From: Lingula anatina
Lineage: Eukaryota; Animalia; Brachiopoda
DNA length: 64,000 bases
Reading direction: 5' to 3'
Assembly (NCBI GenBank): GCA_051362555.1
Contig: CM120646.1
Span: 7,812,001 to 7,876,000, forward strand
Position 1 is the first letter of the stretch. Every line of letters starts with the position of its first letter. Shown in pieces: positions 1-62,630 of this stretch. A program made the position numbers and the translations under genes. The notes under the pieces are model-generated. The model saw only the letters and a list, made by a program, of their open reading frames with translations, made no database searches and was not told where the DNA came from.

Positions 1-13
1 GTTACTTCTAACC
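1..13 (-). CDS. Start of a V-set Ig exon (gene 6), continuing off the left edge
   Basis: Minus strand ttttag|GG TTA GAA GTA AC (G-L-E-V-T) matches the acceptor and start of V exon 15111-15485. The flanking intron 15-590 is homologous to 15490-16020. Confidence 0.8.
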
Positions 14-596
14 CTAAAACAGGATACATCTTTCATTTAAATGACAAATGTAGCTTCTCCACTTATATTATCAAAAAAGAATAGAGATATTTATGTTACC
101 GTGGGAAGCATTCAAGCCTGGGACGATTGGTTTGAATCTTTAAATGCTAGTTATCTGCATTTGTTTTCTTGTTTGAACGGAGACGGATATTGAACCGTTG
201 TTATTATGCCGGTGTGGTTTAGGAACTTTATCAAGGTTTCACCAGTAAAATGAGGTCATGACTGTTTATCTGAATTTCTGCAATGACATCCATCTTAATT
301 CAATCGACTGCTTAGCATTTATACCAGGAAGTAATGATGAAATCCGTCCCTGCCAAAATGAAGCTTTTTTATTTACTTTATATCCCTTGCAGGGTAATAA
401 TGAAAAGAGTTATTATGTTCTCTTTTTTTTTTTTTTTTTTTTTTTGATGAGGAAAATATCATTCTGTTGATAAATCGAGTCGGGGGGTTGAGGAGGACGC
501 ATACCCCGGTATCTATGACCAAGAAGAAGCTGAAATAATTTTAAGATGGCTCACATACTTTGAAGCAGCGTACATTGCAACACTTTTACTTCCTAC

Positions 597-651
597 CTTT
601 AGTTGTATATGGAGCTACACAGATCAGCACATAAAGACACCACGTCTTCAT
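597..651 (-). CDS. Signal-peptide exon of gene 6 (MKTWCLYVLICVAPYTTK-G)
   Basis: ATG at 651, hydrophobic core, phase-1 donor G|gtagga, 55 bp like the other leader copies. Confidence 0.85.
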
Positions 652-1059
652 CGTCTTCCTCTGTGTTGTCTCTCGTCGAATGTACCTTAATAAGCCGCAG
701 TCACTTTTGTAATGAGAGGTAAAAATAACATCCTCCGCAGCACAACTAACACAATTAACCGTCGGTACAAAGCGTGTTGCTGTATAAAGTGCAGCATCAT
801 TGTATTTTTTATTTATAAAGTGTAAATCATTGCTGTGCAATTTTCAAAAATAAGTTAAGGAAGTGCAAATATTGAAACATTCATTTATAATACAGAGAAA
901 AAAACAGAATATTCTCAATTTTTAATAAATGTGCTTTCAGAAACTAAACCCAGAACAGGATGCTAAGCGTATTAAACTTATCTGTATTTACAGTACATTT
1001 TAGCACAACTGCATCTTAAGTCACAAAGAAGCATCAATAATTTTATTCTCCTCTTTTCA

Positions 1060-1375
1060 CTAAAAAACTAATGGTAGAAGTAACAGAACTCGAGACTAAA
1101 CATTTCAGCACTCCAGGTTGCACAACAGTCGCTAAAGGACGCCCAAAAAAACGGTCATCGGTCTAACAGGAGGCAGAAAGTTCGTAAATGGTCGCCACTA
1201 ATCGCCGATATAGGTACAGAAAACGCAACGTGGTTGCTCAACGGACGCTCAAACATGGCAAAGGACTCCATAGGTTGCACAGTGGATGCACAGGGGAGGC
1301 AGGCAAGTCGTTCAGTAGACGCACAGGCCGCCAATTTTTACAGGAAATCTAGATTTGGTCGTTGAAAAGACACAT
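1060..1375. repeat. Conserved block upstream of three leader exons (copies at about 10050-10500 and 16335-16790)
   Basis: Shared sequence cagcact...cagtcgcc(a)aaggacgcccaaa...ggtcgttgaaaa(g)acaca seen in all three places, each a few hundred bp 5' of a leader ATG. Confidence 0.75.
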
Positions 1376-1939
1376 CGCAGCAGAAAAAATAATAACATCA
1401 CTGGTGGATCTACATTATCAAGTAGGTGGGACATACATTTTCAGTAACCAGTGCCACACCTTTCTATCGAAGCCTATAAAGTAGCATATATACTCCCCTA
1501 GGAAAAAGTATCACTCATACCGCAATTATGAATAGTACTACAAGGGTACCCATATATTTAATTTAAATATTGCATAACAACTAGTCATCCTATCATCATG
1601 TAAAATAGGGGTGTGAGTGATGGGACATTGGCCTATTTAGCGTGAACACTGAAACCCAACACCGATTATCATTTTTTTTAATGTGGCTCGTAATTCAGAG
1701 GGATACATTTCTACCAAGCGGCTGACACAGGAGCTAGTTTTGACCCGCCGAAGTGCCAGGAGGTTGGGGTTTTCCATAAGTGTTGGGTGTTGGGTTGGGG
1801 AAGAGCCGATAAGCAGTATCTACCCAATTTTTCTGCCTCTGTCCCACAGTACGCGCCTCTCCCATACTGTAAGCAATGGCATGGGAATTCTGTCGAAAAT
1901 ATCTTTGGTAACGACATGTTAATTCCAGTGTTCACTTCC

Positions 1940-4602: not shown

Positions 4603-5076
4603 TCAATATATGATACACTCATCATGAGCACTGAGTTGGCTAAACTGGACCTGGGTATCATCATTAAGTGTTATGTAATTATAGGCAACAGAACCATCAG
4701 CTGCAGTCACCGGCAAGATGTTCCCTGCAAGTTCAGTATATGGTTCAGCTAAACGTTTATCCCGATTATCGTGCCGAATATTATTGTACCCAGTCGTCGG
4801 CACAGTATAATCATAAACCACATAACCACCACTAAAGTCAGGGGATGTGTCTACTGCGAGTGGTCTAGGAATTCGGTCGAAAACAGTTCTGCCGTTGTTT
4901 CCGTTTGCTGTCGCATTTTTTGTAATATGATGATGTTCAGATGCTTGTGATTTAAGTTTCCTGGACAACGACCGATTGCGGAATACAAGGTATCCATTCA
5001 TGCATAAAAGACACGTTGCTAGCAAGGTCACAATGATCGAAAATGTCCTCCAAGCAGTAATACAACACCTATGCAT
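4603..5076 (-). CDS. Orphan transmembrane plus cytoplasmic-tail exon (gene 5), open for 157 aa, with several Tyr motifs
   Basis: Paralogous to 11799-12196 and 60853-61235 (RTxSII...CxxC...YLVFRxRSLSRxLKSQ). The homologous acceptor tattacag reads tattactg here. Tail contains YNNI-x12-YTEL and YITL. Confidence 0.6.
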   Translation of the reverse strand: MHRCCITAWRTFSIIVTLLATCLLCMNGYLVFRNRSLSRKLKSQASEHHHITKNATANGNNGRTVFDRIPRPLAVDTSPDFSGGYVVYDYTVPTTGYNNIRHDNRDKRLAEPYTELAGNILPVTAADGSVAYNYITLNDDTQVQFSQLSAHDECIIY

Positions 5077-5750: not shown

Positions 5751-7839
5751 GTAGAGCCGCATTTTGCAACTGACCGCATTTTGCAACTGCAACGCATTTT
5801 GCAACCAAAGAAAACCGTGAAAACGCATTTTGCAACTGCAACGCATTTTGCAACCAGGATTTTTTTCTAAGTCCCTGAAACAGCTTGAAATACGAGACAG
5901 GTAGAATTGGAGTGGGGACGGGTTTGCTTCGACTATGTATGCTGAAACTGGCCAGGCTGCCCCTGGGGTGGACGATAATATAAAACTTATTTCACGTTGT
6001 AATTTCCTAATCCATTAGAGTTAGGAAGTCTTTAGAAACGTTAATAAACATTTTGTTAGGCATGTGCATGGGATTTCGGATTTTTTTTAATTGGGGGTGT
6101 GGCCGTCCCTAGGGGTGGTTGATTGTACTTTTTACTTCGTATTTTTCTCCTATCTACCCTTATATCTTCAGAATTAGGAAATAAAAACGTTGGGGATTAA
6201 TAAACTATCGTAAGAAATATGCAGGGGCACTTCGGAAATTTATTGTGACATGGGTGTGGTTGTCCCTGGGGGTGGTTGATTCTAATTTTGCAACGTATCT
6301 TCTGCTATCTACCCATTGTATCGGCCATTTGATTTAAAACATGAAACGTAGCTACAGTATCATTTGGGATGTTGAAGGGCATTTAATTTTTTTGACTTAG
6401 GTTGTGGTCCTGGGGGTGGTTGAATACAATTAGACGTTGTAATTTCTGCTATCTACCTTTAGACCATATAAGTTAGGAACGGAAGGCTATGGGGATTGAA
6501 AACATGTCTTTAGGGATATGTATGGATCCTTCTGCGTTTTTGATGGGTGTGGCCGTCCCTGGGGGTGGCTGATTCTATTTTTTGCACCATTATTTCTACT
6601 ATCTACTCTTAGAGTTAGGAACTTGAAATGTTGGGGATTGATAAACCAGTCACTTTTTATGAATGTGCATGGGTCTTTGAGGAATGTAGAGAACAGCAGC
6701 AGCGCACATAGCACTAAACGGACTTACAGTCGTAGGCATGAATATAGGTCAAGGAATCCAGTTAAAGCTGCTCCTTTTGATCCATGCCAACCATAAGGCC
6801 CTACACACTCAGAAATCATGGCGTTCAACTAGCCGTTGTGTCTTAATACAAAACAAACATGTTAATGAATCATGAATAGTAATTAGCATGTGTGTTGCTA
6901 TACAGAGGCTATGCCTGAAAGTATGGGGTCTTGCATGGGTTTTTAATTAACTTGACCTACATTCAAGCATACCGCTAAAGGTCTGTTATTAAGTGCTGTC
7001 TGCTGCTTTCTTTGCATTTCCCTTCCTTCTTAACTCGAAGACCGCTTTCAGATTCACACATCCTACTAGCTGGGTCGGTCCAACTCTGCAGGGGATCTCA
7101 CTTAAGTGCAATCAGTGGAATCAGCTTAATTGTCTGACATGCCACCAATCACCCCATCCCCTGAGGGACAGTCACACCCAAAGTCACACTAAAATTCCCC
7201 TGTACCCATGCACCAAAGACTCATGTTCCTAACTCGAATGGTCGAGAAAGAGATGAAAGAAATTACGGTGAAAATATTACAGTCAAGTAACCATCCCCAG
7301 GGACGGCCACTCCCCAAGTCACCAAAAATTCCGTTGTGCCCAAGCACATCTCAACCACCCCAGAGAAAAACACACCCCAACTCCCCAAAAATCTGAAGTG
7401 CCCACGCACATTTCTTACGATGGTGTATTAATCCCCAACACTTTTATTTCCTAATTCTAAAGATATAAGGGTAGATAACAGAAAATACAATGTAAAATTA
7501 CAATCAACCACCCCTAGGGACGGCCACACCCCTATGTACATGCCTAACAATATCTTTATTATTCCCTGACGTTTCAACTTCCTAACCCTAATGGTATAAG
7601 AAATTACAATGTGAAATAGATTATATATTTTCCCCGCCCTAGAGGCAACCTGACCAGTTTCAGCGTACCTCGTCGAAGCAAACCCGTCCCACTCCATTTC
7701 TACCTGTTTCGTACCTCAAACTGTTTTAGGAACTGGTTGCAAAATGCGTTGCAGTTGCAAAATGCGTTTTCACGATTTTCTTTGGTTGCAAAATGCGTTG
7801 CAGTTGCAAAATGCGTTCAGTTGCAAAATGCGGCTCTAC
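5751..7839. mobile_element. Foldback-type non-autonomous DNA element with long (several hundred bp) imperfect terminal inverted repeats
   Basis: Ends gtagagccgcattttgcaact... / ...agttgcaaaatgcggctctac. Subterminal cgcattttgcaac arrays and mirrored internal ccctgggggtgg / ccacccc repeats. No ORF. Confidence 0.85.
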
Positions 7840-7930: not shown

Positions 7931-8006
7931 CCTTTGAAATACATATTCGTGTAATGTAGCATTCTGCGCGACCTCTCCGGGATCCACTGTGTAGCTGAAC
8001 ATAAGG
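7931..8006 (-). pseudogene. V-exon fragment (FSYTVDPGEVAQ) with the B-strand Cys mutated
   Basis: Matches CSYTVDPGETAQ of intact V exons. Truncated on both sides and abuts the foldback element. A decayed leader-like sequence lies at about 8066-8118. Confidence 0.7.
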
Positions 8007-8623
8007 CCGACAAATCTTCAAACCATTAAATTATTTTAAAGGACAGAAAGGCACATTTAGTTCCCACCATCAGATGAATATGGAGTTACAAAAAGCAACA
8101 CATAAATACACCACGTCCGCCTGCATCTTCCTGCGTGTTGCCCCTAGCCGCGGGTACTTTTTTTTTTTTTGGGGAGTTAAATATAACATCTCCGTTGCTG
8201 CCTGATAATCAACAAAGTAGATCCTAATACAATTTACCTGTGGTATACAGAACGTTATGCTAGAAAAATTACCACATCGGTTAATTTCTGTACTTAGGGG
8301 CTGATCAATATTATTCTGTTTTCTGAAATATGATTAAGAAAAGGCAAATAATATTAAAACACAATTAATAAACAGAAAAAAAGCATAGTATTCACAATTT
8401 CATGAGGCGGGTTTTCAGGAAGTCAATCCAACCCTGGCTGTGGAGTACACGTTTAATATAGATAATTATTCTTTCTATTACAACGGGGATGAAATGTCAT
8501 TTTCAGTTTCTTAATTTTCTCTGTTACCTGGGCTCATATCAGCTAAACTCTAACGGTTAATAGGGGCTGTGCAAGAGTTCTACAAAGAGGTGCGACTGAT
8601 TTTATTTCAGACACCCCTTGTAG

Positions 8624-8722
8624 GTGTAACTACACACAAGGTTTAATGGTTGTGGGGTACCTCCCTCAGGGTTCATGACGTAACCATTTGGAAGGCAAGC
8701 CAGCTAATGTTACTTCTTACCC
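8624..8722 (-). pseudogene. 5' fragment of a V exon (gene 5) with a frameshift and no acceptor
   Basis: EVTLAGLPS, then a +1 base, then NGYVMNPEGGTPQPLNLVCSYT. Close to the 15111-15485 V exon. No AG at the homologous acceptor and the 3' two-thirds are missing. Confidence 0.8.
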
Positions 8723-9292
8723 CAAACAAGGGTAACAGGAAAAGGAAAGAATCGAGATATAAATGCATTCTTGGGCAGTGTGTAGCCTGTGACGATTGAC
8801 AAAAATCACGGTGTATCATTCCCAATTGTGCCTAGAGTCTTCATTTTGTTCTTAAAATGCGTTTTCTTTGCGTTTGTGTTCTTGTTTGAACAGAGGAAGG
8901 TATTGATCTGATATCACTATAGTTTAGAAACTTGATCAATGTCAGACCAGTAAAATGAGGTCATGTCTGTTTATGTTATTTTCTGCAATGACCTCTATCT
9001 TAACTCAATCGATTGCTAAGCATTTATACCAATAAGTAATTATGGGACCCCTCCCTGCCAAAATGCAGCTTTTTTTAATTCATAACTCTTACAGGGTAAT
9101 TAGAAAACGAGTCATTAAGTTCAATTTTTGTTTCGATGAAGAATGTACCATTCTGTTGATACATCAAGTCGTGGGATTCGAGGGGGACGCATCCCCCAGG
9201 TATCTATTGTCTCGGCCTAGGACAAGCTGGACTATTTTAGTATGGCTAACATACTTTGAAGCACCGTAAAGAGCATCACGTTTACTTCCTAC

Positions 9293-9347
9293 CTTTAGTT
9301 GAATATAGAGCTACACAGAGCAGCACATAAAGACACCACTCCTTCAT
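9293..9347 (-). pseudogene. Intact-looking leader exon (MKEWCLYVLLCVALYSTK-G) of decayed gene 5
   Basis: ATG, 55 bp, donor G|gtagga, but its downstream V exon is broken. Confidence 0.7.
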
Positions 9348-11798: not shown

Positions 11799-12196
11799 TT
11801 AAATGTAATTATAGTCACCAATACCATTTGTGGCGGTAGACGGCAATAGGTTATCTCCAAGTTCCATATATTGCCCATCTGAACGGTTATCCCGCCGAAG
11901 TTCTTCGTAACTATTCGCCAATGCAGTATCGTCATAGTCAACATGAACCCCATCAAAACCAGAGGAATGATCTGTCGCGCGATTCATAGATACTTGGACA
12001 TTGAATGGACTGTCAACGTTGTTTGAGTGTTCTGTTACAGTGTTTGTAATAACACTGCCATGTTGCTGTTCAGAAGCTTGTGATTTGAGTCTCCTGGACA
12101 ATGACCGAATGCGGAATACAAGGTATGCAATTATGCAAATAAGGCACATTGCTAACAACGATATCACAATGATTGATACTGTTCTCCCATCAATGC
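11799..12196 (-). CDS. Gene 4 terminal exon: transmembrane helix plus cytoplasmic tail with ITAM-like YEEL-x9-YMEL
   Basis: Acceptor ttgtattacag|GC (phase 1), then GIDGRTVSIIVISLLAMCLICIIAYLVFRIRSLSRRLK, a basic stop-transfer segment and TAA at 11799-11801. Confidence 0.85.
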
Positions 12197-13001: not shown

Positions 13002-13037
13002 CTCCTGTAGATTTTGCAGGTTTGTTAGCTGAGAGAG
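13002..13037 (-). CDS. Gene 4 stalk micro-exon 2 (ALSANKPAKSTG), 36 bp
   Basis: tttttcag| ... G|gtaggt, phase 1-1, homologous to 62589-62630. Confidence 0.7.
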
Positions 13038-13689: not shown

Positions 13690-13731
13690 CTGCATCATTA
13701 GTTGATTTCATAGTAGTGGTAGTTGAAGGAG
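13690..13731 (-). CDS. Gene 4 stalk micro-exon 1 (APSTTTTMKSTNDA), 42 bp
   Basis: ctttttag| ... G|gtaggt, phase 1-1, same length and composition as the other stalk exons. Confidence 0.8.
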
Positions 13732-14006: not shown

Positions 14007-14318
14007 CAGCACTCTCAGGCACTATAACACTTGTCTTGCTCTGACTTGTCATTGAATCGTGCAATATTTGGCAAATTACTTCAACTGGATCTGCTTGGGT
14101 TGCTATCACTTCTACTTCACTTTCGACCAGAAAAGTGTCTCCCTGGGGTGTCACCGTGTTCGAGTTTGCATTTATCGCCACCTGCATCTGATCAGAAGTT
14201 TGCATTTTAAACCATTTTATCTCAGGTGCTGGTCTGCCGCCATCAGAGGAACAAGATACCCGGTAGGTGCCCGTAGCGACTTCAGGTCCTCGTGTAATCT
14301 GGGGTGGGGTTGGTCGAT
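14007..14318 (-). CDS. Gene 4 C2-type Ig exon (CD80/nectin-like), 312 bp
   Basis: tttgtag|AT ... G|gtatgt. Motif YRVSCSSDGGRPAPEIKWFK...VICQILHDSM with the Cys-Trp-Cys core. Confidence 0.9.
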
Positions 14319-15110: not shown

Positions 15111-15485
15111 AGAGTAAACTAAGGATTTGCTCGTCAGTTGTCACGATGGCTCTATTGAATTCAGTGGTAACACGACATGTATAGCGCCCCTCATCTGCCA
15201 TGGTGACTCCACTGATAGTTAACGTGTATGATGGATCAGAGGCTGTAGCAGTCACATCAGCTCTAGTGAAATAGCTGTTGAATTTCCTGGGAGTTCCATC
15301 AGATACCTGTATAACTACTATTTGGTTTGCTGGGTCAGTTCCATCTTTGAAGAATGTGACATACTGAGCCGTCTCTCCGGGATCCACTGTGTAACTGCAC
15401 ACAAGGTTTAGTGGTTGTGGGTTGCCGCCCTCAGGATTCATGACGTATCCATTGACAGGCAAACCAGCTAATGTTACTTCTAACC
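15111..15485 (-). CDS. Gene 4 V-set Ig exon, 375 bp
   Basis: tttttag|GG ... T|gtaagt. LVCSY...FFKDG...YTLTISGVTMADEGRYTC (DxGxYxC motif). Splicing to the C2 exon gives the typical ...LL-Y-RP junction. Confidence 0.9.
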
Positions 15486-16022: not shown

Positions 16023-16083
16023 CTTTAGTTGAATATGGAGCTGCACAGAGAAGCACATAAACATAAAAACACCACGTCTTCAT
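16023..16083 (-). CDS. Gene 4 signal-peptide exon (MKTWCFYVYVLLCAAPYSTK-G), 61 bp
   Basis: ATG at 16083, phase-1 donor G|gtagga, in-frame 6 bp duplication relative to the other leaders. Confidence 0.85.
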
Positions 16084-17530: not shown

Positions 17531-17944
17531 AACATGTGTATAGGCAGTTTACTAGCGTTATTTTTTCAGCCCCCTCCCCCCAGAATAATAATGAAGACGA
17601 GTTAAAATTTTCCATGTTATATTTGTAAAAAAAGAGTCTTTTACAATACACATTTCATTCCTCCACCAAACATTTCAAAGTTAGTTTTACTTACATACTA
17701 ATCTGAGTGTTTGCGCCGGAGAAATTGAAAGAGGGGTATTGAGTATGGTGGAAGCTGTGCAGTTATAGGTCCCTTCATCTACCAACGTGATTGTGCTAAT
17801 TTCCACCATGTATAATGGATCAGACACTGTAACAGTCACGTCAGTTCTACCGGCAAAAGCGTTCTGCAGATGGAAACTGCCGCCCGATATCACTATTCTC
17901 ACTATTCGGTTTGCAGCGATCGTTCCATCATTTATGCCCCTATG

Positions 17945-19044: not shown

Positions 19045-19111
19045 TTTCAATATTACAACTTAAAACACCGTATCTCCTGGATCCACTGTGTTACTGCACA
19101 CAAGATCCACT

Positions 19112-20969: not shown

Positions 20970-21022
20970 CTTCAGTTGGATATAGAGTTACAAGGAGCAG
21001 CACGTAAACACGTCACGTCTAA
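20970..21022 (-). pseudogene. Dead leader exon of gene 3
   Basis: ...VYVLLLVTLYPTE-G|gtagaa is retained, but the 5' end has stop codons and no ATG. Confidence 0.65.
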
Positions 21023-39824: not shown

Positions 39825-40136
39825 CAGCACTTTCAGGAACCATGATTTTCGTTGTGATCTGACTTATAAGTGAGTCGTGTAGTAGCTGGCAAATTAATTC
39901 CACTGGATCTGCTTGGGTTGCCATCACTTCAACTGCACTTTCGACCAGAAAAGTGTCTCCCTGGCTTTGCTCATTTCTAGAGGTTTCATTTAACGCAACC
40001 TGCATCTGGTCAGAACTCTGCATTTTAAACCATCTTATCTCAGGTGCTGGTCTGCCGCCATCAGAGGAACAAGTTACCCGGTAGGTATCTGTGGCAACTT
40101 GGGGTCCGCGTCTAATCTGAGGTGGGTACGGTCGAT
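39825..40136 (-). CDS. Gene 2 C2-type Ig exon, second copy (C2), 312 bp
   Basis: ttttacag|AT ... G|gtatgt, open frame. Confidence 0.9.
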
Positions 40137-46043: not shown

Positions 46044-46418
46044 ATACTAATTTGAGGGTCTGAGCCAATGATATTGACATGGGATTATTGAAAAAGGTGG
46101 AAACTTTGCAATGATAGCTCCCCTCATCTGCCAATGTGACTGTCCCAATTGTCAGCGAGAATGATGGATCAGAGACTGTCACCGTCACGTCAGTTCTAGA
46201 GGCAAAGGCGTTCTGCAGCTGGTAACTTCCGTCAGATATCACTATTCCCACTATTTGGCTTGAATCAGTCGTTCCATCTTTGTAGAAATACACGACCTGC
46301 ATGGTCTCTCCGGGATCCACTGTGTAACTGCACACAAGGTCCACTGTTGGTGGGATGCCGCTTTCAGGATTCATGACCAAGCCGTTAGAAGGTAAAACAG
46401 CCAGTGTCACTTCCAACC
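46044..46418 (-). CDS. Gene 2 V-set exon V2, 375 bp
   Basis: ttatatag|GG ... T|gtaagt, open frame. Confidence 0.9.
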
Positions 46419-47580
46419 CTATATAATAAGAACAAATAATAATTATTAAGAATTATATTTAAAAACCCTGGAAATGTTTAGCAATAAATCCCTCAATTTT
46501 TCAGTTTGTATTCCGAAGAGTTGATTTTAGTGTTGAGTGTCATTATGTCATCTGATGTGATATAAAGACATGTATCCATCCTTGTAATTGGTTTATATTG
46601 TAAAATACAAGTTCACTCATTAGTGTTCGTGTTATGTGTTGACAGGCTTTGAGCTGTGGACTAAAGTATTACTAAAAAGTTCACAAAATTTACAAACGTA
46701 GTAGCAGAGAGGTAAATAAGGTCATGTCATTTTATTGTCTTTTCATTCAACTATAACATCAAACACTTTAATCGGGGGCCAAGTACTTCTACCATGCAGA
46801 AGGCAATTTTACGATCCTTGTCATAAAAAAGGGTAGCACCATGATTATTAAAGAGGTATGAATTTTTTGTTGTATCGTTGATGTAGAATTTATTATCACC
46901 TTGGTTAAAAAATGACGTATGAAGTCGCTTTTGTTCTTCACCTTTTGAAAACCTGCGTCACTTGAAGAGTCTATGGAGGCGATCTCCATGTTGTTTATGA
47001 AAAGATTAAGTTGACAAATCTTCCAGCCACTTAATTATTTTAAAGCAGAGAAAGGCACATTTAGGTCCTTTCGTCAGATAGATTTAGATTTGCAAACAGC
47101 AGTACATTCCCTGCACTTCGAATCGTTATTTTATAACATTATTGGTTAAGTTTTGATTTTGTTTGAAATAACTGACCAGTCATTTCAATTTTGACTCAGA
47201 TATTTTAACAATTTGTTCTTCTAAAGGCCTGCAATAAGCTTCTACGCCTCGATAATCCTGACAGATATTCCTGAAATCTTGTCATAAAGTTGCTGGAGGA
47301 AAAAGTTCAAATTTTCCTCTTCTATCAGACCTTAATGCACTTATTCAACAATCAATCGTATTGTTTATCCAAATGAGATTGTAACGACAAAACTATGACG
47401 TGACAATTCACAACTATGATGTCATAATCACATCCAAAACTAGACTACAGATAGAATGATATTAACAGCTGATAAGAAATCCACCAGTCAACCGGCAAAG
47501 GGTTCCATAGGAAAGTGTCAAACACAACAACGGAATATTTTGAATCACAAGAAAACAAATGTATTACAAATGCCACTTAC

Positions 47581-47622
47581 CTGTCGAATTTGTAATGTTT
47601 TCTGTGGTGGCCGTTGAAGGAC
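47581..47622 (-). CDS. Gene 2 stalk micro-exon after C1 (GPSTATTENITNST)
   Basis: tcttccag| 42 bp G|gtaagt. Confidence 0.8.
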
Positions 47623-48111: not shown

Positions 48112-48423
48112 CAGCACTTTCAGGCACCGTGATTTTTGTCGTGGTCTGACTTATAAGTGAGTCATGCAATAGCTGGCAAATTAATTCCACTGGATCTGCT
48201 TGGGTTGCCATCACGTCAACTGCACTTTCGACCAGAAAGGTGTCTCCCTGGTTTTGCTCATTTCCAGAGGTTTCATTTAACGTGACCTGCATCTGGTCAG
48301 AACTCTTTACTTTAAACCATCTTATCTCAGGTGCTGGTCTGCCGCCATCAGAAGAACAAGTCACCCGGTAGGTATCTGTGGCAACTTGGGGTCCTCGTGT
48401 AATCCGGGGTGGATTAGGTCGAT
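48112..48423 (-). CDS. Gene 2 C2-type Ig exon C1, 312 bp
   Basis: ttttcatttag|AT CGA CCT AAT... G|gtatgt, open frame RPNPPRITRGPQVATDTYRVTC. Confidence 0.9.
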
Positions 48424-49810: not shown

Positions 49811-50299
49811 GAATCGTACATCATCATGATCAGCAATTCACCCTGTCTCTTATTGCAAATAGTACTTATAAATTATGAATGGTAATGAATGAGGAATAAG
49901 CAGCGAATAGCATTTTCATAAAGGCACAGTTTATGGCAAAAAAAGTTTTGAAGTTTAAAGATGTTCAGTACACAAATATCCATCATCAAGACCTGTGTAA
50001 AAAATAAAGATTAAAAGTAACAAAGAAAGCAACATCATTTTTAAAAATAATATTTACAGAACAAGCTGGTTTGTAGCCTCAATTACTAAAAATATTTATT
50101 TGATATGGACAATTGGCTTGAGTCAGTCTTATTTTATTAATTTTGTGAATGACAAATTCTCTATCGTCACCGTTGAATTACCATTATTATTTTACATCAC
50201 TAATCTTTTTTTAACAATCTTACTGTTAAGGCCTGGTTTAAGTTTGTTTAAGAGATATGATAGCTATCGCGCTTAACAACAGATTGCCAGCTATTGTGA

Positions 50300-52400
50300 G
50301 ATCACTTCTCCTCTTTAACCGAGCTCTTAGACTGTTAATTCACCGTATTTTCATATAGTGTTGTCACACTGTCAGGCTTCCCCTGTTGCACGCTGGAGTT
50401 GACTTGTCGTTGCACCAATGCTAGATATTTTCTCTTATTCTGTTGTTTATATAAACCTTTTCATTTAATTTTAAATATTTTCATCTCATTATCCATCGTG
50501 AGCTCTGACAAACGGATGGGTTTTTGCCCACAGCAGAATAATTTTTAAAGCAATTTGTTAGCTCATAATTATGACAGGGCGCCCTTTTTTGTCGCTGTTG
50601 CTTAAAAATGGACGTTAGTTTGGAGGTTTAATGCTTAGCTCTCATCGCGTTATATGTATGTACATCTAAACGTTAAGATGTCAATTCTATACTTGACTGT
50701 GATTGCCCGGTGTCGCACATGTGCTTTCTCACTACAGTGATCTAAAACAAGTCGCTAGCGCATTTAAATATAGCAAAATCTGTTCGACAGGACGTTTCTT
50801 CACGGCAGTCATGCAGACACACAGTAATTGTAAATGCATGGTTTTACCTTGTTTGAGAAAAGATAACGATCGCGTTTAACAATAAATTGCGAGCACAATA
50901 AGAACCCCCTCTTCTTTAATCGATGTTTACATTAGTCAGAGAAATGGAGGTCCACCCTATTTTTATGTCCGTCCCTTTCTATTACTACTAGGTAAAGGCC
51001 AGTGACATGAATGGTATGGTGAGCATATATAATTACTCCGTAAAATCGCCGATTTGTCGGTTCGTCTCTCTGGCGTAGTGATTGCGCCACCGCTAGATAT
51101 TTTCTCCTATTCTGTTGTTTATATAAACGGGGGATTTTTCCCAAGCATAATGATCTATTTTAAGCAATTTGTCTCATAACTATTTCAGGGTTTTTTTTCT
51201 CGTTGTTGTTTAAAAATGAACGTTAGTTTGTCGAGGCTTAATGCTTAACTCTTATCGCGTTAAATGTATTTGCATCTAAACGATAAAATGTCAATTTTAT
51301 ACTAGGCTAGTTATTGCCCGGGTGTCGCACGTATGCTTTCTTACTACAGTGATCTAAAACAAGTCGCTCGTGTATGTAAGTGTAGCAAAATCTGTTCGAC
51401 AGGACGTTTCTTCACGGCAGCTACACGGCAGACACAGTAATTGTAAAGGCATGATTTTACCTTGTTTGAGAAAATATAACAATCGCGTTTTACAATAAAT
51501 TGCGACCTATAGTAAGACCCCCCTCCTCTTTAACCGATGTCTTACACTGTTAATACACACTGTCAGACTGCCCACTGTTCCACGCTGGAGTACAATCGCC
51601 CTTGTTTCTCTTATTCTGTTGTTAATATAACAATATTAAATATAAAAATATTTTCATCTATTTTTGAAAATTATCATCTCATCACCCATTGTACGCTCTG
51701 AGAAACGAGGGATTTAGCAATTTGTCTCATAACTATGACATGGCGCCCTTTTTTCTTGTCGTTGATTAATAATGGACGTTAACGAGCTTTAATGCTTAGC
51801 TCTCATCGCGTTATATGTATGTGCATCTAAACGATAAGATGTCAATTATATACTTGACTGTTATTGCCCAGTGTCGTTCGTATGCTTTCTCACTACAGTG
51901 ATCTAAAACAAGTCTCTAGTGTACTTAAATATAGCAAAAGCGGTTCGACAGGACGTTTCTTTACTGCAGTCGGACACACAGTAATTGTAAAGGCATGGTT
52001 TTACCTTGTTTGAGAAAAAGATAACAATAGATTACGAGCTAAAGTACCCCCCCACCCCCCCCACTCCTCTGTAACCGATGTCTTACACTGTTAATACACA
52101 CTGTCAGACTTCCCCCTGTACCACGCTGGAGTTCATTTGCCCTTGCGCCACTGCTATATATTTTCTTCTATTCTGTTGTTTATATAAATTTTTTCATTTA
52201 TTTTTGAATATTTTCTTCTCATCACCAATTGTGCGCTCTAAAAAACGGGGGATTTTTCCCACAGCATAATGGTCTATTTTAAGCAGTTTGTCTCATAACT
52301 ATGACAGGGCGGTTTTTTTCTCGTTGTTGTTTAAAAATGAACGTTAGTTAGTTGAGGCTTAATGCTTAACTCTTGTCGCGTTATATGTATGTGCATCTAA
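50300..52400. repeat. Large-period tandem repeat (about 550-640 bp, about 3.5 copies); an inverted partial copy lies at about 41960-42290
   Basis: actacagtgatctaaaacaagtc at about 50731, 51343 and 51892. Confidence 0.8.
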
Positions 52401-53250
52401 ATTAAAGGGAGTAATGAGGCAATTAAGGGTAACAGTAAAATTATCAAGGGTTACATGGACGAGTGAGATCATCTGTTTAACCCACCTCTACCTGGAGATT
52501 TACTTTGATCAGGTTTTGATAAAATTATCTGTACTTCTAATTCTAATATTTTTCGGACTTGTACTCCGTGAAAATAATTTGTTTAATGAAATTATTTTAT
52601 CTGTCGTCGAGTTGCAACATCACACCAGAGAAGTCTCTACTTCTATGATCACACTAAGAGATTTTCATAAAATGGATGAAAAGGTTTGAAATGCATACTT
52701 TTTACTTTATACTTGTATATAAATCTATATTCTTCTGGGGGCATCGTCCAGGGAGGGAATTGTCCTGGGGGGTGGGATTGTCAGGGGGGGGGGGGGGTTG
52801 ACCGGGGGGAATTGTCCTGATATCTTGTTAGGTGTTACGACCAAGGAATACTCTGATAGCCTACATACATGTATGATAGCACGAAAAAACTTTGAGACGG
52901 TATTGGGACACAAAATGGCAGATCAACATTTTGAGACTTCTTCCCCTCACCATAGCCTATATCCTCTGGCAGTGCAGAATGTGTAAGCAAAAGCAAATAA
53001 GATCCTAAAGACGAAACTGTCTTTCGGGGTACATTTAGGTTCTTTCCGTGTTTTTTTTTTTCCACGTATGGTGTGTTTAATTATATATTTTGTATTAGCT
53101 TTTCTGTTACTGTAAGTTCTTATTACTCTCAATCAAAACAAAAAACTGTATAGCTTGGCCCTATATGCAGCCAACCTACTCAACATGCATGTACTCAACA
53201 TACTAATAAAGATCAGTTACAACTTAGTTGATATTTTCACATTTACTTAC

Positions 53251-53330
53251 ATAATTGTATTATTTTAAGACCCTCTGCTGGAGTTGTAATAGTTGGATTA
53301 TTGAGTATGGTACCATTTTTGCAGTAATAG
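53251..53330 (-). pseudogene. Isolated 3' end of a V exon (YYCKNGTILNNPTITTPAEGLKIIQL) with its own donor
   Basis: Aligns to YYCKVTTILSNPMAITPAQTLKLV and ends T|gtaagt. No acceptor seen. Confidence 0.65.
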
Positions 53331-53600: not shown

Positions 53601-53975
53601 ATACTAATTTGAGGGTCTGCGCTGGGGTTATTGCCATGGGATTACTAAGTATGGTGGTTACTTTGCAGTAATAGCTTCCCTCATCTGCCAACGTGACTAT
53701 GCCAATTGTCACCGTGAATGATGGATCAGAGGCTGTAACCGTCACGTCAGTTCTAGTGGCAAAGGAGTTCGTCTGCCGGAAACTTCCGTCAGCTATTACT
53801 ATTGCCACTATTTGGTCTGAATCAGTCGTTCCATCTTTGTAGAAATACACGACCTGCATCGTCTCTCCGGGATCTACTGTGTAACTGCACACAAGGTCCA
53901 CTGCTGGTGGGATGCCGCTTTCAGGATTCATGACCAACCCATTAGAAGGTAATTCAGCTAATGTAGCCTCTAAAC
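53601..53975 (-). CDS. Gene 2 V-set exon V1 (N-terminal), 375 bp
   Basis: ttatatag|GT ... T|gtaagt. LEATLAELPSNGL...ADEGSYYC. Confidence 0.9.
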
Positions 53976-54887: not shown

Positions 54888-54942
54888 CTTTTGTTGAATA
54901 TGGAGCCACACAGAGCAGCACAAAAAGGCACAATCCCTTCAT
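54888..54942 (-). CDS. Gene 2 signal-peptide exon (MKGLCLFVLLCVAPYSTK-G), 55 bp
   Basis: aaaacATG at 54942, phase-1 donor G|gtaggt. Confidence 0.85.
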
Positions 54943-55177: not shown

Positions 55178-55750
55178 AAGCCTAGGTAACATTTGAAATG
55201 CGATGAATGGTGCACGTATACTACCCGTAATTCCCTTTTCGTACGGCGTCTGAATGTGGGTAGACGGTGGCCGTGCGAAATTGCACCTAATCGTACTTAT
55301 TTAAGCCCTCCGCAGTCTCAACGATTTTGTCAAACTGTACCTTTTCACAATTTTTTTAAATCGTGAGCCCGTACACTGTAACAATATTGAGATGGCATTG
55401 CGCAATCCCCGCACGGGATTTTACGGGTATTGTACGGTGGACTTCTGGTCCTGCGATATGGAGCTGTCAAAATTTATAATCCTTGTTTAAGCTTGGGTCC
55501 CAACTCTACGTACGATTTTCAGGTCGTACGTAGTTTTAAGCCTCGGTCACAACCGGACGCACGAATTTCAAATTGGCCGGCCAGATTTTCGCTACGACCT
55601 GTCTGCGACAATTAGAACGCCTGGAGCACGCTCGTAGCACGCAAGACAAAAGCACTGAGTAAGTGCGCTAGGCGTGCGTGTAACGCAGGAAAAGCATGCA
55701 GAAATTCCGGGGTATTTTACCACGAAGACGTACTTACCACGCAAGAGATT
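55178..55750. mobile_element. MITE-like insertions immediately 5' of gene 2, including an about 170 bp near-exact copy of 56481-56654
   Basis: Homology to the other genes' upstream region stops at about 55178. The segment tggccggccag...cttaccacgcaagaga is duplicated. Confidence 0.6.
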
Positions 55751-56340
55751 CTTGGCCTTAGTACTGCCATAAGTGCCCTGCATAGTACATTTACCTAACT
55801 ATTGTTTTAAAGTAATATATCTTACATGTATGATATATATTAATAAACAAATTTGTTAATAAACAAATGTGCCAAACGAGTTAAATGTGCCAAACGAGTT
55901 ATAGCTAACTAGCATAAATACAACCATGTTACATTTAGCCAATGCTTAAATCTGCTTCATTAGTCAGGAAAAGATTAAAAAAACTATTAGGGGGGGGGGA
56001 CAGGGTTGGGTTTGAATAACTTTACCAAAATTCACCTTAAAATTTTCATTCCTGAATAATGCACTACTTAAGGTGGTGAATATTACTAGACAAGTGAGGG
56101 AGAGCATTAACTGTCTCCTGAATAACTGAACCCATATGCCTCTGATTAGCAGGTCTTCCAGAGGCAAAGTAGCACTGTCCAATTAGGTGCCCCCCTTAAT
56201 TCTGTCTCACAATTGCCGATTGAAAGTAATTAAGTCTAAGTGTGAAAAACACTACAAGAATGAAGACAAGTGGTTGGGGAGGTTGGAGGGTGTACAAATA
56301 ACAATAAACAAACGTAAGTCATAATAGAGTGCAGCTGCTA

Positions 56341-57332
56341 AAGCTACTCTTACAACCGGTCGTGCGTGCTTCTACGAGCGGTTTGCGTGCAAAAAATTGG
56401 CAAAGTAGCAAGATACACGCACGTGGAACGTACTGTTTTTGGTGGACGAAAACACGACGCAAAGCACGCAGCCCGAAAACTGGCCGGCCAGTTTTTCGCT
56501 ACGACCTGTCTGCGACAATTAGAACGCCTGGAGCACGCTCGTAGCACGCAAGACAAAAGTACTGAGTAAGTGCGCTAGGCGTGCGTGTAACGCAGGAAAA
56601 GCATGCAGAAATTCCGGGGTATTTTACCACGAAGACGTACTTACCACGCAAGAGACTCGTACGTTCAACTTGCTTTCAATGTACGTGTTAACGAGAAGGG
56701 GGTGAGCGCACTTCCTCCGTGCGTTTATCACATTTCCATTGCGTGGCGAGTACTACTATCATACTTGTGAAGTGCGTCACACTAAGACGACGCACGTGCC
56801 CAGCACGATTAAAGTGCAGGCGATCCCGAGCAACCACTGCAAGAATTGCGTCACGATCTTCGGCCTCCTCTAGCATTAGCAGCTGTAGAAGTCGATAGCG
56901 CATCCTTCTTGGAAGTGCCATTTTGGAAGCCAAAACAGTGAATGATGAAGAGACTCGGTGCTCCCTTTTATATTATTTTGATTATCCGTGCGTTCCACTT
57001 CCGTGCTTATTACGTTTCTCTTACGTTTCTCTTACTTCGTAAGTACGATTTCTGAAAACGTACGCTTCACTTGCAATACACGTATGATTATCTCACTCAC
57101 TGTGTGCGACACAAGTACAGATCGTACGTGCTCCTTACTTCTTCCTACTTCCAAAAAAAGGCGTACAGACCACTTGCGGGCCCCACGTTTAGAGCACAAC
57201 ACACCTACTCATAAAGTGCTTACTACTTCGTCCGCTGCGATTTAATTTTCATCCTGCGACAACGCTACGTCTGACAAGAACTCCGAGGACGCACGATCTC
57301 TAAGCACGCACGACGGGTTGTATGAGAGGCTT
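56341..57332. mobile_element. About 1 kb non-autonomous DNA transposon (PIF/Harbinger-like)
   Basis: Imperfect TIR aagctactcttacaaccggtcgtgcgtgctt / aagcacgcacgacgggttgtatgagaggctt. Internal ORF 56688-56933 may be a remnant of a transposase N-terminus (inference). Confidence 0.65.
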
Positions 57333-59192: not shown

Positions 59193-60026
59193 GTGCAGCT
59201 CGATAGAATTAGTCACCAAAACGTCTTTCATGAAATATAAATGCGTGTGCCTAGATACAGAGCAGCTAAGACATTCCATAACCCTGGACATCTGTTATCA
59301 CCTTGCCTTGGTCAACTACTTAAGGTCAAAATGTGCAGACACAGTCCACCCCCTCCCCCCTCCAGGCTGTACGTCTCTCGTACAACCTTTCTCTGGTCAC
59401 TCTCATACAGAGGTGAGACGCCTCTTTCTACACCACGCTGAGGTGAGACGCCTCACGCAGTACGCTATACACGGCTACGCACACTCACTCCATCAGATAT
59501 AACTATAAACGGATATATCATATCACTCCTTCACATAAGCGTAACGGAGGAAAATCCAAGGGAAGTAGAGCATTAACTCTTAAACCCGAGCGTCCCACAA
59601 ACCATCTCAAAGCTTTTAACTAGGGGCGCTGTCAAAACACACGTCCCCAGGGGCCCAGCCTTGGATCGTGTTATTTTGCTTAGAGGTAGTTAAACCAAGG
59701 CATGAGCCGACCACCCCCAAACACGAGTCGACCTCCGACTCCCGAGCCATTCACACGCTCAATTCATACCGTCCAGCTCGTATCCCTTTTGTTATGGAGG
59801 AGAACTCCTTAACAAGATACAGCATCTTAGACTGAACGGTGTTTCTGGATACCCATCCTACTTGACACAAGCGAGACACTTGTGATCAAGCATGATACTA
59901 TGAAGCCGAAATGGCTCGTATCATTCACCATGGCGAGACACCATTGATGAAAACTCACTAAACAAAGGCGAGACACCTTTGCTTACCAACCCCCCACGTC
60001 CCTGAATTTTTTTTTATCTCAGACTC

Positions 60027-60071
60027 TGCAGCTGATGAAGGTCACTTGTTGACCGAAAAGCGCTTTCTGCA
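60027..60071 (+). ncRNA. Minimal type I hammerhead ribozyme of the Penelope-like element type
   Basis: TGCAG-CTGATGA-A-GGTC-acttgtt-GACC-GAA-AAGCGCTT-T-CTGCA: stem I TGCAG/CTGCA, stem II GGTC/GACC, palindromic stem III AAGCGCTT. Confidence 0.7.
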
Positions 60072-60852
60072 ACCAGTTCACCCTCCCCCTTCCCTCGACA
60101 GGCGAGACGCCTCTATCGTGCCAATCACGAAATGCCCTTTTCAGGGCACCCTATGTAGATCGGTATCTATAAATCTCATACTATGTAGGTGAGACACCTA
60201 CCTTCCTATCAGAGACGATCTTTCCTAATAATAAAGGCGAGAAAATACACGTCCTCAGAGGCCCAGCTCTGAATCGTGTTATTTTGGTAAAGTGGAATCT
60301 AACTAGGGCATAAGCCGACCACCCCCAACACCAAGTCTGGACTTGAGATTCTGTTGACTTTTGTTTTAGAAAAACAAAAAAAAAACAAAAACATTTACTT
60401 GTGTCTATGAACTGTGAACATTGCAATGTGTTGGAGACAAAGACAACACGGACAGTGAACTGATTATGTTTATTAGCAACTTAAAAAAATAACTGAAAGA
60501 TATTTTTAATTAAAAAAGGGAGATGTTGTATATTATAAAGGTAATTAACATATATCCCACAATGCATTGTTCCTTCTCTACCGGTTAGCTAGCATGCCCA
60601 CATGTGGCTGGATGTCATTTAATAAATGAGTTATAAAAAAGTAAACATAACAAACAGAAGAAAACGACAGCAAGAAGTATAATACTTTGGTGATTGTATA
60701 TCACATATTAATCTTCCTTTTCAAGTCCTTCTGTTATAAATGGAACACTGTTGACATCTTTAATTACAAAAAAAGTACAGGTTAAGAGGTTCCTGACTAT
60801 AACGAAACGTCTTCAACCTTGGAAAGTTAAATCAAGGATCATCCTTGGAAAG

Positions 60853-61235
60853 TTAAATCTGCTTAGAGTCACCAGTACCATTGGTGGCAGTCGACGGCAA
60901 TTGGTTCTCATCAAGTTCCATGTATTGCCCATCTGAACAGTTATCTTGCCGAAGTTCTTCGTATCTATTCGCCAATGCAGTATCGTCATAATTCACATAA
61001 ACCCCATCAAAACCAGAGGAATGATCTGTTTGGCGCTTTGCAGAAACATGGTTATTGACGTTGTTGGAGTGTTCTGTTACATTGTTTGTAATAACACTGC
61101 CATGTTGCTGTTCAGATACTTGTGATTTGAGTCTCCTGGACAATGACCGAATGCGGAATACATGGTATGCGATTATGCAAAAAAGGCACATTGTTAACAC
61201 GATCAAAGCGATCGATACTGTTCTCCAACCATTGC
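60853..61235 (-). CDS. Gene 1 terminal exon: TM plus cytoplasmic tail with YVN and ITAM-like YEEL-x9-YMEL
   Basis: Acceptor ttgtattgcag|GC, then GNGWRTVSIALIVLTMCLFCIIAYHVFRIRSLSRRLK. Close paralogue of 11799-12196 with the stop at the same position. Confidence 0.85.
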
Positions 61236-62588
61236 CTGCAATACAAAAGATATTGTTTAAACTGGTAGCCGAGTTGAATCATTTCTGACTTTTGTTAACT
61301 GAAACATAATATACATTTTCGTAGTCATTTTATAGTGTCATTATAGTGTCTGTAACTAAACATGGCGACAAGTTTTGGTTGCTCGTCATGAAATCATTTA
61401 ACAAAGAATGAGGCGTCGGAACCACTGTTAGAAAAAAATTGCGGTAAACTTTCACTTGAGTAATACTATGTAGAACATTAAAGATGAAAATATTTACTGA
61501 TGAACATTTTATATTCATTTTAAAGCATAAAAAATTCAAAATTAAACATTTCCTATTTTATTTGACATTTTCTGATGAAAGTGCACCTTTGTATAGTCTT
61601 TTGATAACAGCCGTAAAGAAAATTAAAGAAAATTCTACAGAAAATTAAAATGCAGAAACAAAACATTCGGTCACACAGTGAATTTCCTCAGCGTGTGGTA
61701 TTATGAGACTGAACGTTACCTACCAATGTAACATTAATTGTATCAGTCCATACAGTAGTTACACGTGCGCTTCGATTATTGATATTTTTTTACATTTTAT
61801 TGGTGTCAAACAGTTCTAGTATCAGTGTTTGTAATTGTGACATTTCGTTACATTAAAATCTCTTAATTAGCATTATAATAAAATAAAATCACATTATGTA
61901 TAATTGTGTTAACAGCAAAATAACCATCAATTTTTAATGGTAATATAAAAGTATAATGGATATTCAGAAAATGTGACTTGAAAAGGTCTTCAAGCCAGTG
62001 GAAGCTCAAAGTCACACCTTGATAATGTCATTGTCATTTTCAAAAAAAACTGTATAACTTCCGGAAAATTAACTAATGAGACAGATATTCCAACTGTAGT
62101 TGTATTTCAGTCCTATGCTTATTTCCTGTAAGTGTGAGACAGAATAATGGGCATGGTTTTCCTTTAACGGTCACTATGATCGTGTTCACTTTATGCGGCA
62201 ATCGAATTTTAGTAGCGTTAGAGGCTATTATTGTACCTCGGGACACCCAAATATTGTGTTGCATTTGCTAAAGCCTCGAGTTAGCAGGTGGGCGCAATCG
62301 CCATCACTTGCGTGCCGATGCAGTTCGCGACGCTTTCGAATTATAGAGACCATTATCAAGTAGAATTTCACAATCAGTTACTAGAACCCCCTGAGCCTAC
62401 TGAGTGGTGTACCCCTCAGTTTGTGTTCCGCAGTGATCTATGGTGAAATTTATATCTGCATGATCATCCAAATGGCTATGCCAGATAAAGCGTGAGAATT
62501 AAATTAAACCAACGAGTACTTAATGATTGGGTTGAAAAGTTTTATTATGTTTTGTAGCAAAAGAAATTTCACTTCGAATTGCACCTAC

Positions 62589-62630
62589 CTGTCGTATTTG
62601 TAGATTTTGCAGTGTTGTTAGTTGAGGGAT
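62589..62630 (-). CDS. Gene 1 stalk micro-exon (DPSTNNTAKSTNTT); the gene continues beyond the right edge
   Basis: tttttcag| 42 bp G|gtaggt. Flanks are homologous to 12880-13290. Confidence 0.75.

Follow-up and report, generated by a model that had tools for sequence, protein, structure and literature searches.

A Lingula-specific cluster of V-C2 immunoglobulin genes with ITAM-like and GPI-type forms, a candidate CEACAM-style paired-receptor system

A 64,000-nt stretch of the genome of the brachiopod Lingula anatina (here, the window) contains a lineage-specific cluster of V-C2 IgSF genes in which ITAM-like and GPI-type forms are mixed and, as its pseudogenes support, turnover has proceeded by birth and death. 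We give about an even chance to the reading that this Lingula-specific cluster is a paired-receptor system in the style of the CEACAMs, with a presumed immune function.

Results

All cluster elements lie on the minus strand, and coordinates are window positions. Six intact V exons (each exactly 375 nt), six C2 exons (each 312 nt) and eight 42-nt stalk exons share AG/GT boundaries and phase 1; their sizes and phase agree with an earlier sequence-only reading, whose leader for every unit was not borne out. The 12 Ig exons contain no stops or indels, their splice sites are intact, and the same order of units was found in a second assembly. The HMMER check proposed earlier gave scores above the Pfam gathering threshold for 3/3 V exons (V-set) and 2/2 C2 exons (C2-set_2) scanned. 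Together the exons make up two whole genes (A and B) and two edge-cut genes, accompanied by the interspersed pseudogenes already reported. Three TM+tail exons are present; both kinds of ending proposed before, TM and GPI-type, thus exist, but the window holds a single GPI-type tail, that of gene A. The cluster runs past both edges, as had been suggested, with stalk and TM exons at 60.9-62.6 kb and a leader at 597-651. Mobile-element insertions and many pseudogene remnants lie within the window.

The five central V-C2-stalk units, previously counted among at least six loci, belong to gene A, a ten-domain gene with a single open frame of 3,873 nt, 19 exons and 1,290 amino acids. Its signal-peptide leader (54888-54942, 55 nt, phase 1) has intact ATG and GT and is 19/19 identical to the P0002 N terminus. 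Unit 1 comprises a V exon at 53601-53975 (AG/GT; V-set 32.8 bits), a C2 exon at 48112-48423 (C2-set_2 35.8 bits) and a 42-nt Ser/Thr-rich stalk exon at 47581-47622. The V, C2 and stalk exons follow at 46044-46418 (V46), 39825-40136 and 39474-39515 in unit 2, at 37485-37859 (V37), 36626-36937 and 36315-36356 plus 34844-34885 in unit 3 (both stalk exons also in P0001), at 32813-33187 (V33), 29940-30251 and 29521-29562 in unit 4, and at 27535-27909 (V27), 26672-26983 and 26310-26351 in unit 5. An 87-nt pre-tail exon of small residues (25405-25491; 26/28 identical to P0001), the putative GPI attachment site, precedes the last exon (24897-24940), which encodes a hydrophobic C terminus and stop. The GPI-type signal is predicted by eye, the best 19-residue hydropathy being 1.76, at the P0001 C terminus. 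Another in-frame acceptor for the last exon lies 6 nt downstream.

Only one of the five units retains an intact canonical leader (54888-54942). The copies before V46 (near 47058-47107), V37 (near 38510-38591) and V33 (near 33767-33853) have lost both start codon and donor site, and the copy before V27 (28566-28611) no longer has its original start; what remains there is a secondary in-frame ATG and GT. This last remnant is a possible internal start of a one-unit form; read depth over it was zero in 4/4 runs. Gene A arose when a block of leader, V, C2 and stalk was duplicated in tandem, and the internal leaders died afterwards. We treat it as one gene because the frame is open over 19 exons, the internal leaders are dead, RefSeq models XP_013384533 and XP_013384545 string the units together in identical order, the V and C2 exons have no indels whereas 540-600 nt of neighbouring intron show 8-19 indel events per pair, and three reads (run X7) cross the stalk-to-V joint after unit 4. 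Reads also cross the V-to-C2 joint of unit 3 (three of run X7, one of X5) and the joint from the unit 5 stalk to the next exon (two of X7). RefSeq annotation breaks gene A into two and labels one half 'mucin-5AC'. It is very unlikely that each unit is instead a gene of its own, or that the units are cassettes that exclude one another on one leader and one tail. Such an arrangement could be read from the leader-derived remnant at each unit, with the ATG and GT of unit 5, and from joints that skip units (30251-37485, 29563-36629), but start and donor are missing in three of the four internal leaders, no terminal exon was found between gene A units, and RefSeq chains them; with reads 90-95% alike and units 82-94% identical to one another, the skipping joints are as easily misplaced reads.

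Gene B (407 amino acids) comprises a 61-nt leader (16023-16083; ATG and GT intact, hardly any read depth), a V exon of subtype Vb (15111-15485; V-set 37.1 bits), a C2 exon (14007-14318; included in the C2-set_2 scan), stalk exons of 42 nt (13690-13731) and 36 nt (13002-13037), each 13/14 identical to P0010, and a TM+tail exon (11799-12196) with YEEL-x9-YMEL (shuffle p 0.0065) and a read depth of 0.7-3.8 in 3/4 runs. Its 36-nt exon and the 87-nt exon of gene A were absent from the earlier exon list. At the right edge, gene 0 (RefSeq LOC106154655/P0005) is represented by a 42-nt stalk exon (62589-62630, AG/GT; P0005 residues 240-257) and a TM+tail exon (60853-61235) with YEEL-x9-YMEL (122/126 residues identical to P0005; shuffle p 0.0036), and at the left edge the leader at 597-651 is 19/19 identical to the P0008 N terminus. 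The 5' part of gene C (7964-9347) has an intact leader (9293-9347) and broken V remnants (8722-8623 and 8011-7964); it also holds a dead leader near 8.1 kb. The gene C TM+tail exon (4603-5068), with YNNI-x12-YTEL and one ITIM-consensus match, shares 94.7% identity with P0041, a model that has leader and TM but no Ig domains. A further pseudogene (17690-21035) combines a dead leader near 21.0 kb with a V exon in three pieces (20337-20260, 19116-19066 and 17935-17690) separated by two insertions, with no C2 exon in that interval.

Tails in the family are of three types: ITAM-like, GPI-type and PDZ-type. The paired YxxL motifs ascribed earlier to the TM exons hold in two of the three window tails, which match the consensus Yxx[LI]x6-9Yxx[LI] used in PMC9546547 with a spacer of 9 (shuffle p 0.004-0.007); the third, in gene C, has a 12-residue spacer between YxxL-type motifs and a splice acceptor that is out of frame in the window haplotype. 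Both tyrosine motifs are retained in a tail only 45% identical, and the second motif of P0003 is degenerate (YMES). The V-C2-stalk-TM paralogue P0158 has a short tail ending T-T-V, which we take to be a class I PDZ-type motif; V-C2-TM with a PDZ-type C terminus occurs only in P0158/P0162 and in none of the window's genes. One ITIM-consensus match, and no ITIM-only partner, was found among the 16 Lingula family sequences scanned, a possibly incomplete list; it belongs to the probably broken gene C lineage, whose tail also has the long-spacer YxxL pair.

Three V subtypes are each shared, at 79-95% identity, between a tyrosine-motif receptor and a protein of GPI or PDZ type, counting RefSeq paralogues; the paralogues that make these pairs are predictions from outside the window, in which mis-joining is possible. 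The V domain of gene B (ITAM tail) is 91% identical to that of P0158 (T-T-V tail), the first V of P0003 (tail lineage of gene B) is 95% identical to that of P0009 (GPI-type), and the V of P0005 (ITAM) is 79-84% identical to those of gene A, with C2 identity up to 92%. All three subtypes are found on the single chain of P0003. At the level of sequence, the family thus appears to have the trait that marks paired receptors, similar V domains on members with differing tails, and the earlier analogy to CEACAMs is strengthened because near-identical V domains sit on signalling and non-signalling paralogues. Recent duplication, instead of matching under selection, could account for the high V identity.

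A search of 1.84 billion representatives gave no close relative outside Lingula, and no one-to-one orthologue outside it was detected; the best non-Lingula matches reach only 23-40% identity over 80-190 residues. These results and the pseudogenes agree with the earlier view of a lineage-specific Ig family under birth-and-death evolution. C29, R74, D97, G99, Y101 and C103 are invariant in 11 aligned V rows, and the domains have the nine-strand frame with C'' strand, B-F disulfide, Arg-Asp salt bridge and DxGxYxC of the V-set; in every member except the most distant one, Phe stands in for the core C-strand Trp. The gene B V model (pLDDT 83.7, C'' at residues 64-67) matches V domains at Z 12-14, the top match being CEACAM7 N (107 aligned at Z 14.2 and rmsd 1.9), level with TCR and CD8; the two-domain fold search was led by BTN/PD-L1/CD80. 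Among 19 PDB sequence matches at E 0.001, the best was CD276 (E 2.8e-8), and none was a CEACAM or a Wirin (Dpr/DIP/IgLON/Lachesin; clade as delimited in PMC6525511).

Pairwise dN/dS was 0.10-0.56 for V exons (15 pairs) and 0.21-0.52 for C2 exons, with all 30 values below 0.6, and 0.31 on the presumed binding face of the gene A units; there was no sign of positive selection in V or C2 exons or on that face. Variable sites of subtype Vb were concentrated on the C-C''/F-G side (17/55 vs 9/69 elsewhere, p 0.025), and those of subtype Va were not enriched there (26/55 vs 28/69, p 0.47). Two haplotypes differ at 21/1,121 residues (V 15/606, C2 6/515; V excess p 0.12). Spliced transcripts, which the sequence-only reading called for, exist for the family, with most reads derived from paralogues. 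Evidence that genes A and B are themselves expressed is weak, because the abundant reads belong to paralogues and are mostly 90-95% alike; gene A depth is low. Among the members seen, expression was highest for the P0158 type with its PDZ-type tail, which had 84 loose-end reads in X7 and 76 in X8.

Discussion

In a CEACAM-style system, the family would descend from a JAM/nectin/CADM-type adhesion molecule and bind ligand through the GFCC'C'' face, and Src-family phosphorylation of YEEL/YMEL would recruit a Syk-type kinase. Tyrosine-motif members may thereby activate the cell, for instance to phagocytose, when they bind ligands that their look-alike non-signalling relatives would bind as well, and gene A may be a long multivalent adhesin or decoy. 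A bolder version, speculative and rather unlikely, is that a protostome independently evolved the CEACAM3 trick, in which ITAM receptors mimic the animal's own adhesion V domains and trap microbes that exploit those; the P0003 chimera would put three V subtypes on one signalling tail, gene A would be a ten-domain GPI decoy from five fused whole-gene duplicates, and the Ig-less leader-TM-tail allele P0041 could be a free signalling adaptor.

Purifying selection, low polymorphism and the high read count of the PDZ-tailed P0158 type would also suit a lineage-specific adhesion or cell-identity code (JAM/nectin/CADM/Kirrel-like), in which V domains pair between cells and tyrosine motifs dock cytoskeletal or developmental signalling and not immune signalling. 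SYG-1, Roughest and JAM are among the PDB sequence matches, and nectins among the folds. We regard this code as possible, if on the doubtful side, given that pseudogenes, exon shuffling and the lack of close non-Lingula relatives are unusual for core wiring genes and that the tandem YxxL spacing agrees with the ITAM consensus. Neutral tandem-duplication debris without present function is hardly credible: pseudogene remnants, mobile-element insertions and low gene A depth point that way, but the selection pattern (30/30 dN/dS values below 0.6), the undamaged Ig exons and splice sites and the order kept in the second assembly largely refute it.

An allorecognition or gamete-recognition locus, in which allele-specific V-V binding separates self from non-self, is quite unlikely. 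The allorecognition proposed earlier is unsupported because V exons are under purifying selection and haplotype differences are few, which largely matches an observation that the sequence-only reading had itself named as refuting. Lingula is solitary, which also counts against it. Reads of other individuals are 5-10% divergent from the window and contain V ends and leaders that it lacks, and haplotypes may differ at gene C, which is intact in RefSeq and out of frame here; paralogues (P0158, P0009), however, account for at least part of the read divergence. Hydractinia Alr (PMC9546547) also has clustered V-set genes with tails of ITAM type, but the architecture is unlike Alr, and the V and C2 differences are few, in a genome of reported 1.6% heterozygosity (PMC4595640).

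Vertebrates are well known to have clustered Ig families in which activating, GPI and adhesion forms occur together, and such families have also been reported from a cnidarian and a tunicate; for lophotrochozoan ITAM-Ig receptors, the literature searched yielded only a single oyster receptor. If the paired-receptor reading is true, the same logic arose again in protostomes. The Lingula family offers small, well-defined proteins with which ligand binding and Syk recruitment could be tested, and the dead leaders of gene A are a readable record of the assembly of a multi-domain protein from whole-gene duplicates.

Like the CEACAMs (the CEACAM1/3 pair; GPI-anchored CEA/CEACAM5/6), the Lingula genes form a clustered, lineage-specific IgSF family with V domains common to differing tails. 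Multi-unit GPI forms made by exon duplication, as in CEACAMs, are another likeness, with C2-C2 repeats there in place of the V-C2-stalk repeat of Lingula. CEACAM N domains lack the core disulfide, whereas the Lingula V keeps its B-F disulfide with both cysteines invariant. Further differences are the lack of an ITIM-only partner among the 16 sequences and a tail that shares one exon with the TM segment. For the CEACAM family, V domains that resemble one another are described at the N terminus of both signalling and non-signalling members (PMC5112662). In Hydractinia Alr, V-set receptor genes of an invertebrate likewise lie in tandem, and some of the receptors carry ITAMs that follow Yxx[I/L]x6-9Yxx[L/I]. 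According to PMC9546547, Alr proteins have V, two I-set and Fn3-like domains and TM, and their domain 1 lacks the core disulfide; the Lingula proteins have V, C2 and a mucin-like Ser/Thr stalk, keep the disulfide, include GPI-type members and show low V polymorphism (two haplotypes only).

The oyster CgIgR is a lophotrochozoan ITAM-Ig receptor reported to bind bacteria and to recruit and signal through Syk, and is characterized as a single five-Ig receptor (PMC6994640), and Botryllus FF/FcoR form ITIM/hemITAM cognate pairs that contain Sushi domains (PMC12582321); the likeness, compared by description only, is that all are Ig receptors of invertebrates whose tails carry an ITAM or hemITAM. Tandem duplication of V-C exons gave rise to 4Ig B7-H3 (PMC3172298). 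Gene A was likewise duplicated, five-fold, from a V plus CD80-like C2 unit that recalls B7, CD276 and butyrophilin, but identity is ~15-20%, and the Lingula proteins have a stalk exon in the repeat, a GPI-type end and ITAM-like tails. P0158, with V-C2-stalk-TM and its PDZ-type tail end, resembles JAM/CTX/nectin/CADM, from which the family differs in the C-strand Trp to Phe change and in expansion with GPI-type and ITAM-like forms. Fish NITRs have ITIM tails or pair with an adaptor through a charged TM residue, whereas the TM segments of P0003, P0005 and gene B contain no charged residue and the tyrosine motif sits in the receptor's own tail.

Architecture of the Ig gene cluster

Self-comparison and six-frame translation of the window showed that Ig-like exons recur along the minus strand. 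The exon sizes given by the sequence-only reading were reproduced (375-nt V, n = 6; 312-nt C2, n = 6; 42-nt stalk, n = 8), all exons being bordered by AG/GT and in phase 1, and its domain assignments held in Pfam, with V-set above cut-off in 3/3 V exons scanned and C2-set_2 in 2/2 C2 exons. Canonical leader exons are intact at 54942, 16083, 9347 and 651, and exons encoding a transmembrane segment (TM) plus tail lie on the minus strand in gene 0, which is cut by the right window edge (60.9-61.2 kb), gene B (11.8-12.2 kb) and gene C (4.6-5.1 kb). The window thus comprises gene A, a central array of five V-C2-stalk units; gene B, encoding 407 aa in the order leader-V-C2-two stalks-TM-tail; and parts of two more genes, gene 0 (its 3' end) and another of which the leader is present. 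It also contains a pseudogene at 17.7-21.0 kb and gene C, which is broken: in this haplotype its TM exon lacks an acceptor in frame. The gene C acceptor (exons 9293-9347 and 4603-5068) lies 8 nt from that of P0041, the RefSeq allele, and is out of frame here. P0041 itself is modelled with a signal peptide, TM and tyrosine tail without an Ig ectodomain, and is adaptor-like, yet has no charged TM residue. No credible Pfam match was found for eight other ORFs in the window.

Inserted and repeated sequences were also mapped. Inverted repeats of ~500 bp (79.5% identity) flank a 2.1-kb element (5751-7839) that separates the broken V of gene C from its TM exon; it is likely a non-autonomous DNA transposon, and copies elsewhere are transcribed. 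The pseudogene V exon is split by two insertions (17952-19038 and 19126-20254), the former of which contains tandem units of 103 and 167 bp and draws many reads that come from other copies. Two insertions in the V33-C30 intron of gene A (30400-30947 and 31538-31834; exons are named by kb position) have no Pfam match, and their frames resemble LINE reverse-transcriptase 3' ends. A ~600-bp repeat is present in three to four diverged versions at 50224-52401 in the 5.2-kb V53-C48 intron and recurs inverted near 42.0-42.3 kb. Upstream of gene A, 182-bp direct repeats (97.8% identity) surround a GC-richer stretch (55570-56658), and short ORFs lie close by; this is probably a mobile element, and Pfam gave no match.

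Gene A encodes five units in one chain

The leader-like copies preceding V46, V37 and V33 have lost the start codon and donor, the copy before V27 retains only a secondary ATG, and another dead copy lies in intron 1 near 54.2 kb. No terminal exon was found between the five central units in the window, and there is a single GPI-type tail, at 24.9 kb. Joined in order, the 19 exons give 3,873 nt and 1,290 aa without an internal stop. In RefSeq, XP_013384533 spans the leader to unit 3 and XP_013384545 ('mucin-5AC') unit 3 to the tail; the two models chain the units in window order, so the same array exists in a second assembly. Together, the leader, tail, open-frame and RefSeq evidence indicates that the five units form one gene with a GPI-type end. 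Introns 5' of the V exons differ by 8-19 indel events per pair across 540-600 nt, with none in the Ig exons.

A hydrophobic read-through tail after the 29.5-kb stalk was dropped, the frame of the other units being closed there. The tail exon has two in-frame acceptors 6 nt apart (24934-24940), the first used by RefSeq P0001 and the second by paralogue reads. Directly downstream of V53, 53246-53329 is a degenerate copy of a V-exon 3' end and donor site.

A Lingula family with shared V domains and different tails

Five of 861 search candidates passed, all of them Lingula RefSeq proteins (81-98% identity), and further RefSeq paralogues (P0003, P0004, P0008, P0009/P0156, P0010, P0024, P0041 and P0158) lie on three scaffolds. 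A search of 1.84 billion representatives gave 242 hits, of which six reached 1e-30; five of these are Lingula proteins and the sixth is an I-set repeat protein from a nematode. No close match was found among 160 non-Lingula proteins, most of them unnamed, the best being 23-40% identical over 80-190 residues, and a cytoplasmic-tail search among 110 candidates of lengths 210-671 returned only the query.

The tails are of three types: some are ITAM-like, some GPI-type, and that of P0158 is short, ends in T-T-V and is of the PDZ class. Each of three V subtypes recurs on a receptor with tyrosine motifs and on a protein of the non-signalling kind, the paralogues being RefSeq predictions outside the window. 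V identity is 91% between gene B and P0158, 95% between the first V of P0003 and P0009, and 79-84% between P0005 (gene 0) and gene A units. All three subtypes are combined in the single chain of P0003, whose second tyrosine motif is degenerate. V and C2 trees were mostly unresolved (1/12 and 0/10 branches starred), so pairwise identities alone were used. RefSeq isoforms P0003/P0006/P0007 and P0158/P0162 differ in inclusion of a small stalk or tail exon, so the length of the stalk varies by alternative splicing among family members.

The gene 0 and gene B tails (YEEL-x9-YMEL) match the ITAM consensus, as quoted in an excerpt of PMC9546547, with a spacer of 9. This consensus arises in 0.4-0.6% of shuffled gene 0 and gene B tails. 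The gene C tail is 45% identical and keeps both motifs with a spacer of 12 (3.9% in shuffles); it also contains a single match to the ITIM consensus. Modelled at pLDDT 83.7, the V domain of gene B includes a C'' strand, and its fold matches to CEACAM7 N, TCR and CD8 domains are tied (Z 13.8-14.2); the two-domain model is weak (pLDDT 62). Among 19 hits in a PDB sequence search, four-Ig B7-H3 ranked first, and SYG-1, Roughest and JAM were among those that came next; ESM Atlas gave generic chordate V/C2 clusters (CD96, MCAM).

Expression

Of nine raw-read runs carrying the same species label, six were mapped: X1, X4, X5 and X7 to 24.8-41.0 kb, and X7, X8, X9 and X4 to 4.5-21.5 kb. Across 24.8-41.0 kb, depth was low and reads were mostly 90-95% alike (283/368 in X7). 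Joints in the gene A region were V-to-C2 (3 and 5 reads, X7), C2-to-stalk (7), stalk-to-V (3) and, from the last stalk into the pre-tail exon, 2. Reads joining the pre-tail and tail exons in X4 (7) and X5 (4) were not counted for gene A, since their loose end identifies them as paralogue P0009; joints that skip units were not accepted as evidence of alternative splicing, as they may equally reflect paralogous mis-placement of reads. Gene-B-like joints in X7, X8, X9 and X4 numbered 6, 8, 11 and 0 (leader-V), 13, 29, 9 and 0 (V-C2) and 1, 13, 7 and 2 (C2-stalk). Loose ends matched the leader of paralogue P0158 (84 and 76), gene B's own leader at 16.0 kb had next to no depth, and its ITAM exon had a depth of 0.7-3.8 in three of four runs. 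Deep V15/C14 coverage, mostly P0158-type reads, was rejected as gene B expression. The joint reads show transcription and splicing of family members, an ITAM-tailed form and the chaining of stalk to V among them; for genes A and B themselves, expression is only weakly supported.

Variation and possible function

All 30 pairwise dN/dS values lie between 0.10 and 0.56. Window and RefSeq alleles differ at 15/606 V and 6/515 C2 residues (p 0.12) and at 4/126 residues of the gene 0 tail, and Lingula genome heterozygosity is given as 1.6% in an excerpt of PMC4595640. In four Vb domains (the gene B subtype), variation is enriched on the C-C''/F-G side (17/55 vs 9/69, p 0.025, one of two tests); this enrichment is absent in eight Va domains (26/55 vs 28/69, p 0.47).

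We consider a paired-receptor-like system most likely, at about an even chance, and infer every step past anatomy. An adhesion-type V-C2 gene may have duplicated, its copies acquiring a GPI-type end or a tandem-YxxL tail. Ligand-driven clustering would lead Src-family kinases to phosphorylate the tail, which would then recruit Syk. Tail phosphorylation and Syk recruitment are reported for oyster CgIgR in an excerpt of PMC6994640, and the passages of PMC5978004 consulted do not state whether Syk is present in Lingula. GPI and PDZ members bearing the corresponding V domains could serve as adhesins or decoys, for which CEACAM1/3 offer a precedent (PMC5112662, in extract).

An adhesion or identity code, with which SYG-1, Roughest and JAM among the PDB sequence hits agree, is a distinctly less probable but serious alternative. 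Allo- or gamete recognition, the former raised by the sequence-only reading, is unlikely: neither positive selection nor Alr-like polymorphism is evident between the two haplotypes compared. Separate genes or cassettes in place of gene A are more doubtful still, given its dead leaders and single tail, and neutral debris is the least credible reading.

Comparison with known systems

We found no literature description of the Lingula cluster, which is real and apparently undescribed; the Lingula immunity paper of Gerdol et al. 2018 may cover it. Its V-C2 unit is shared with B7/BTN and with JAM/nectin, orthology being unproven in both cases. The Lingula cluster would work in the manner of CEACAM or Alr clusters but belongs to neither group, since it keeps the disulfide and has a different domain order. 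The exon duplication of 4Ig B7-H3, as described in part of PMC3172298, is paralleled by gene A.
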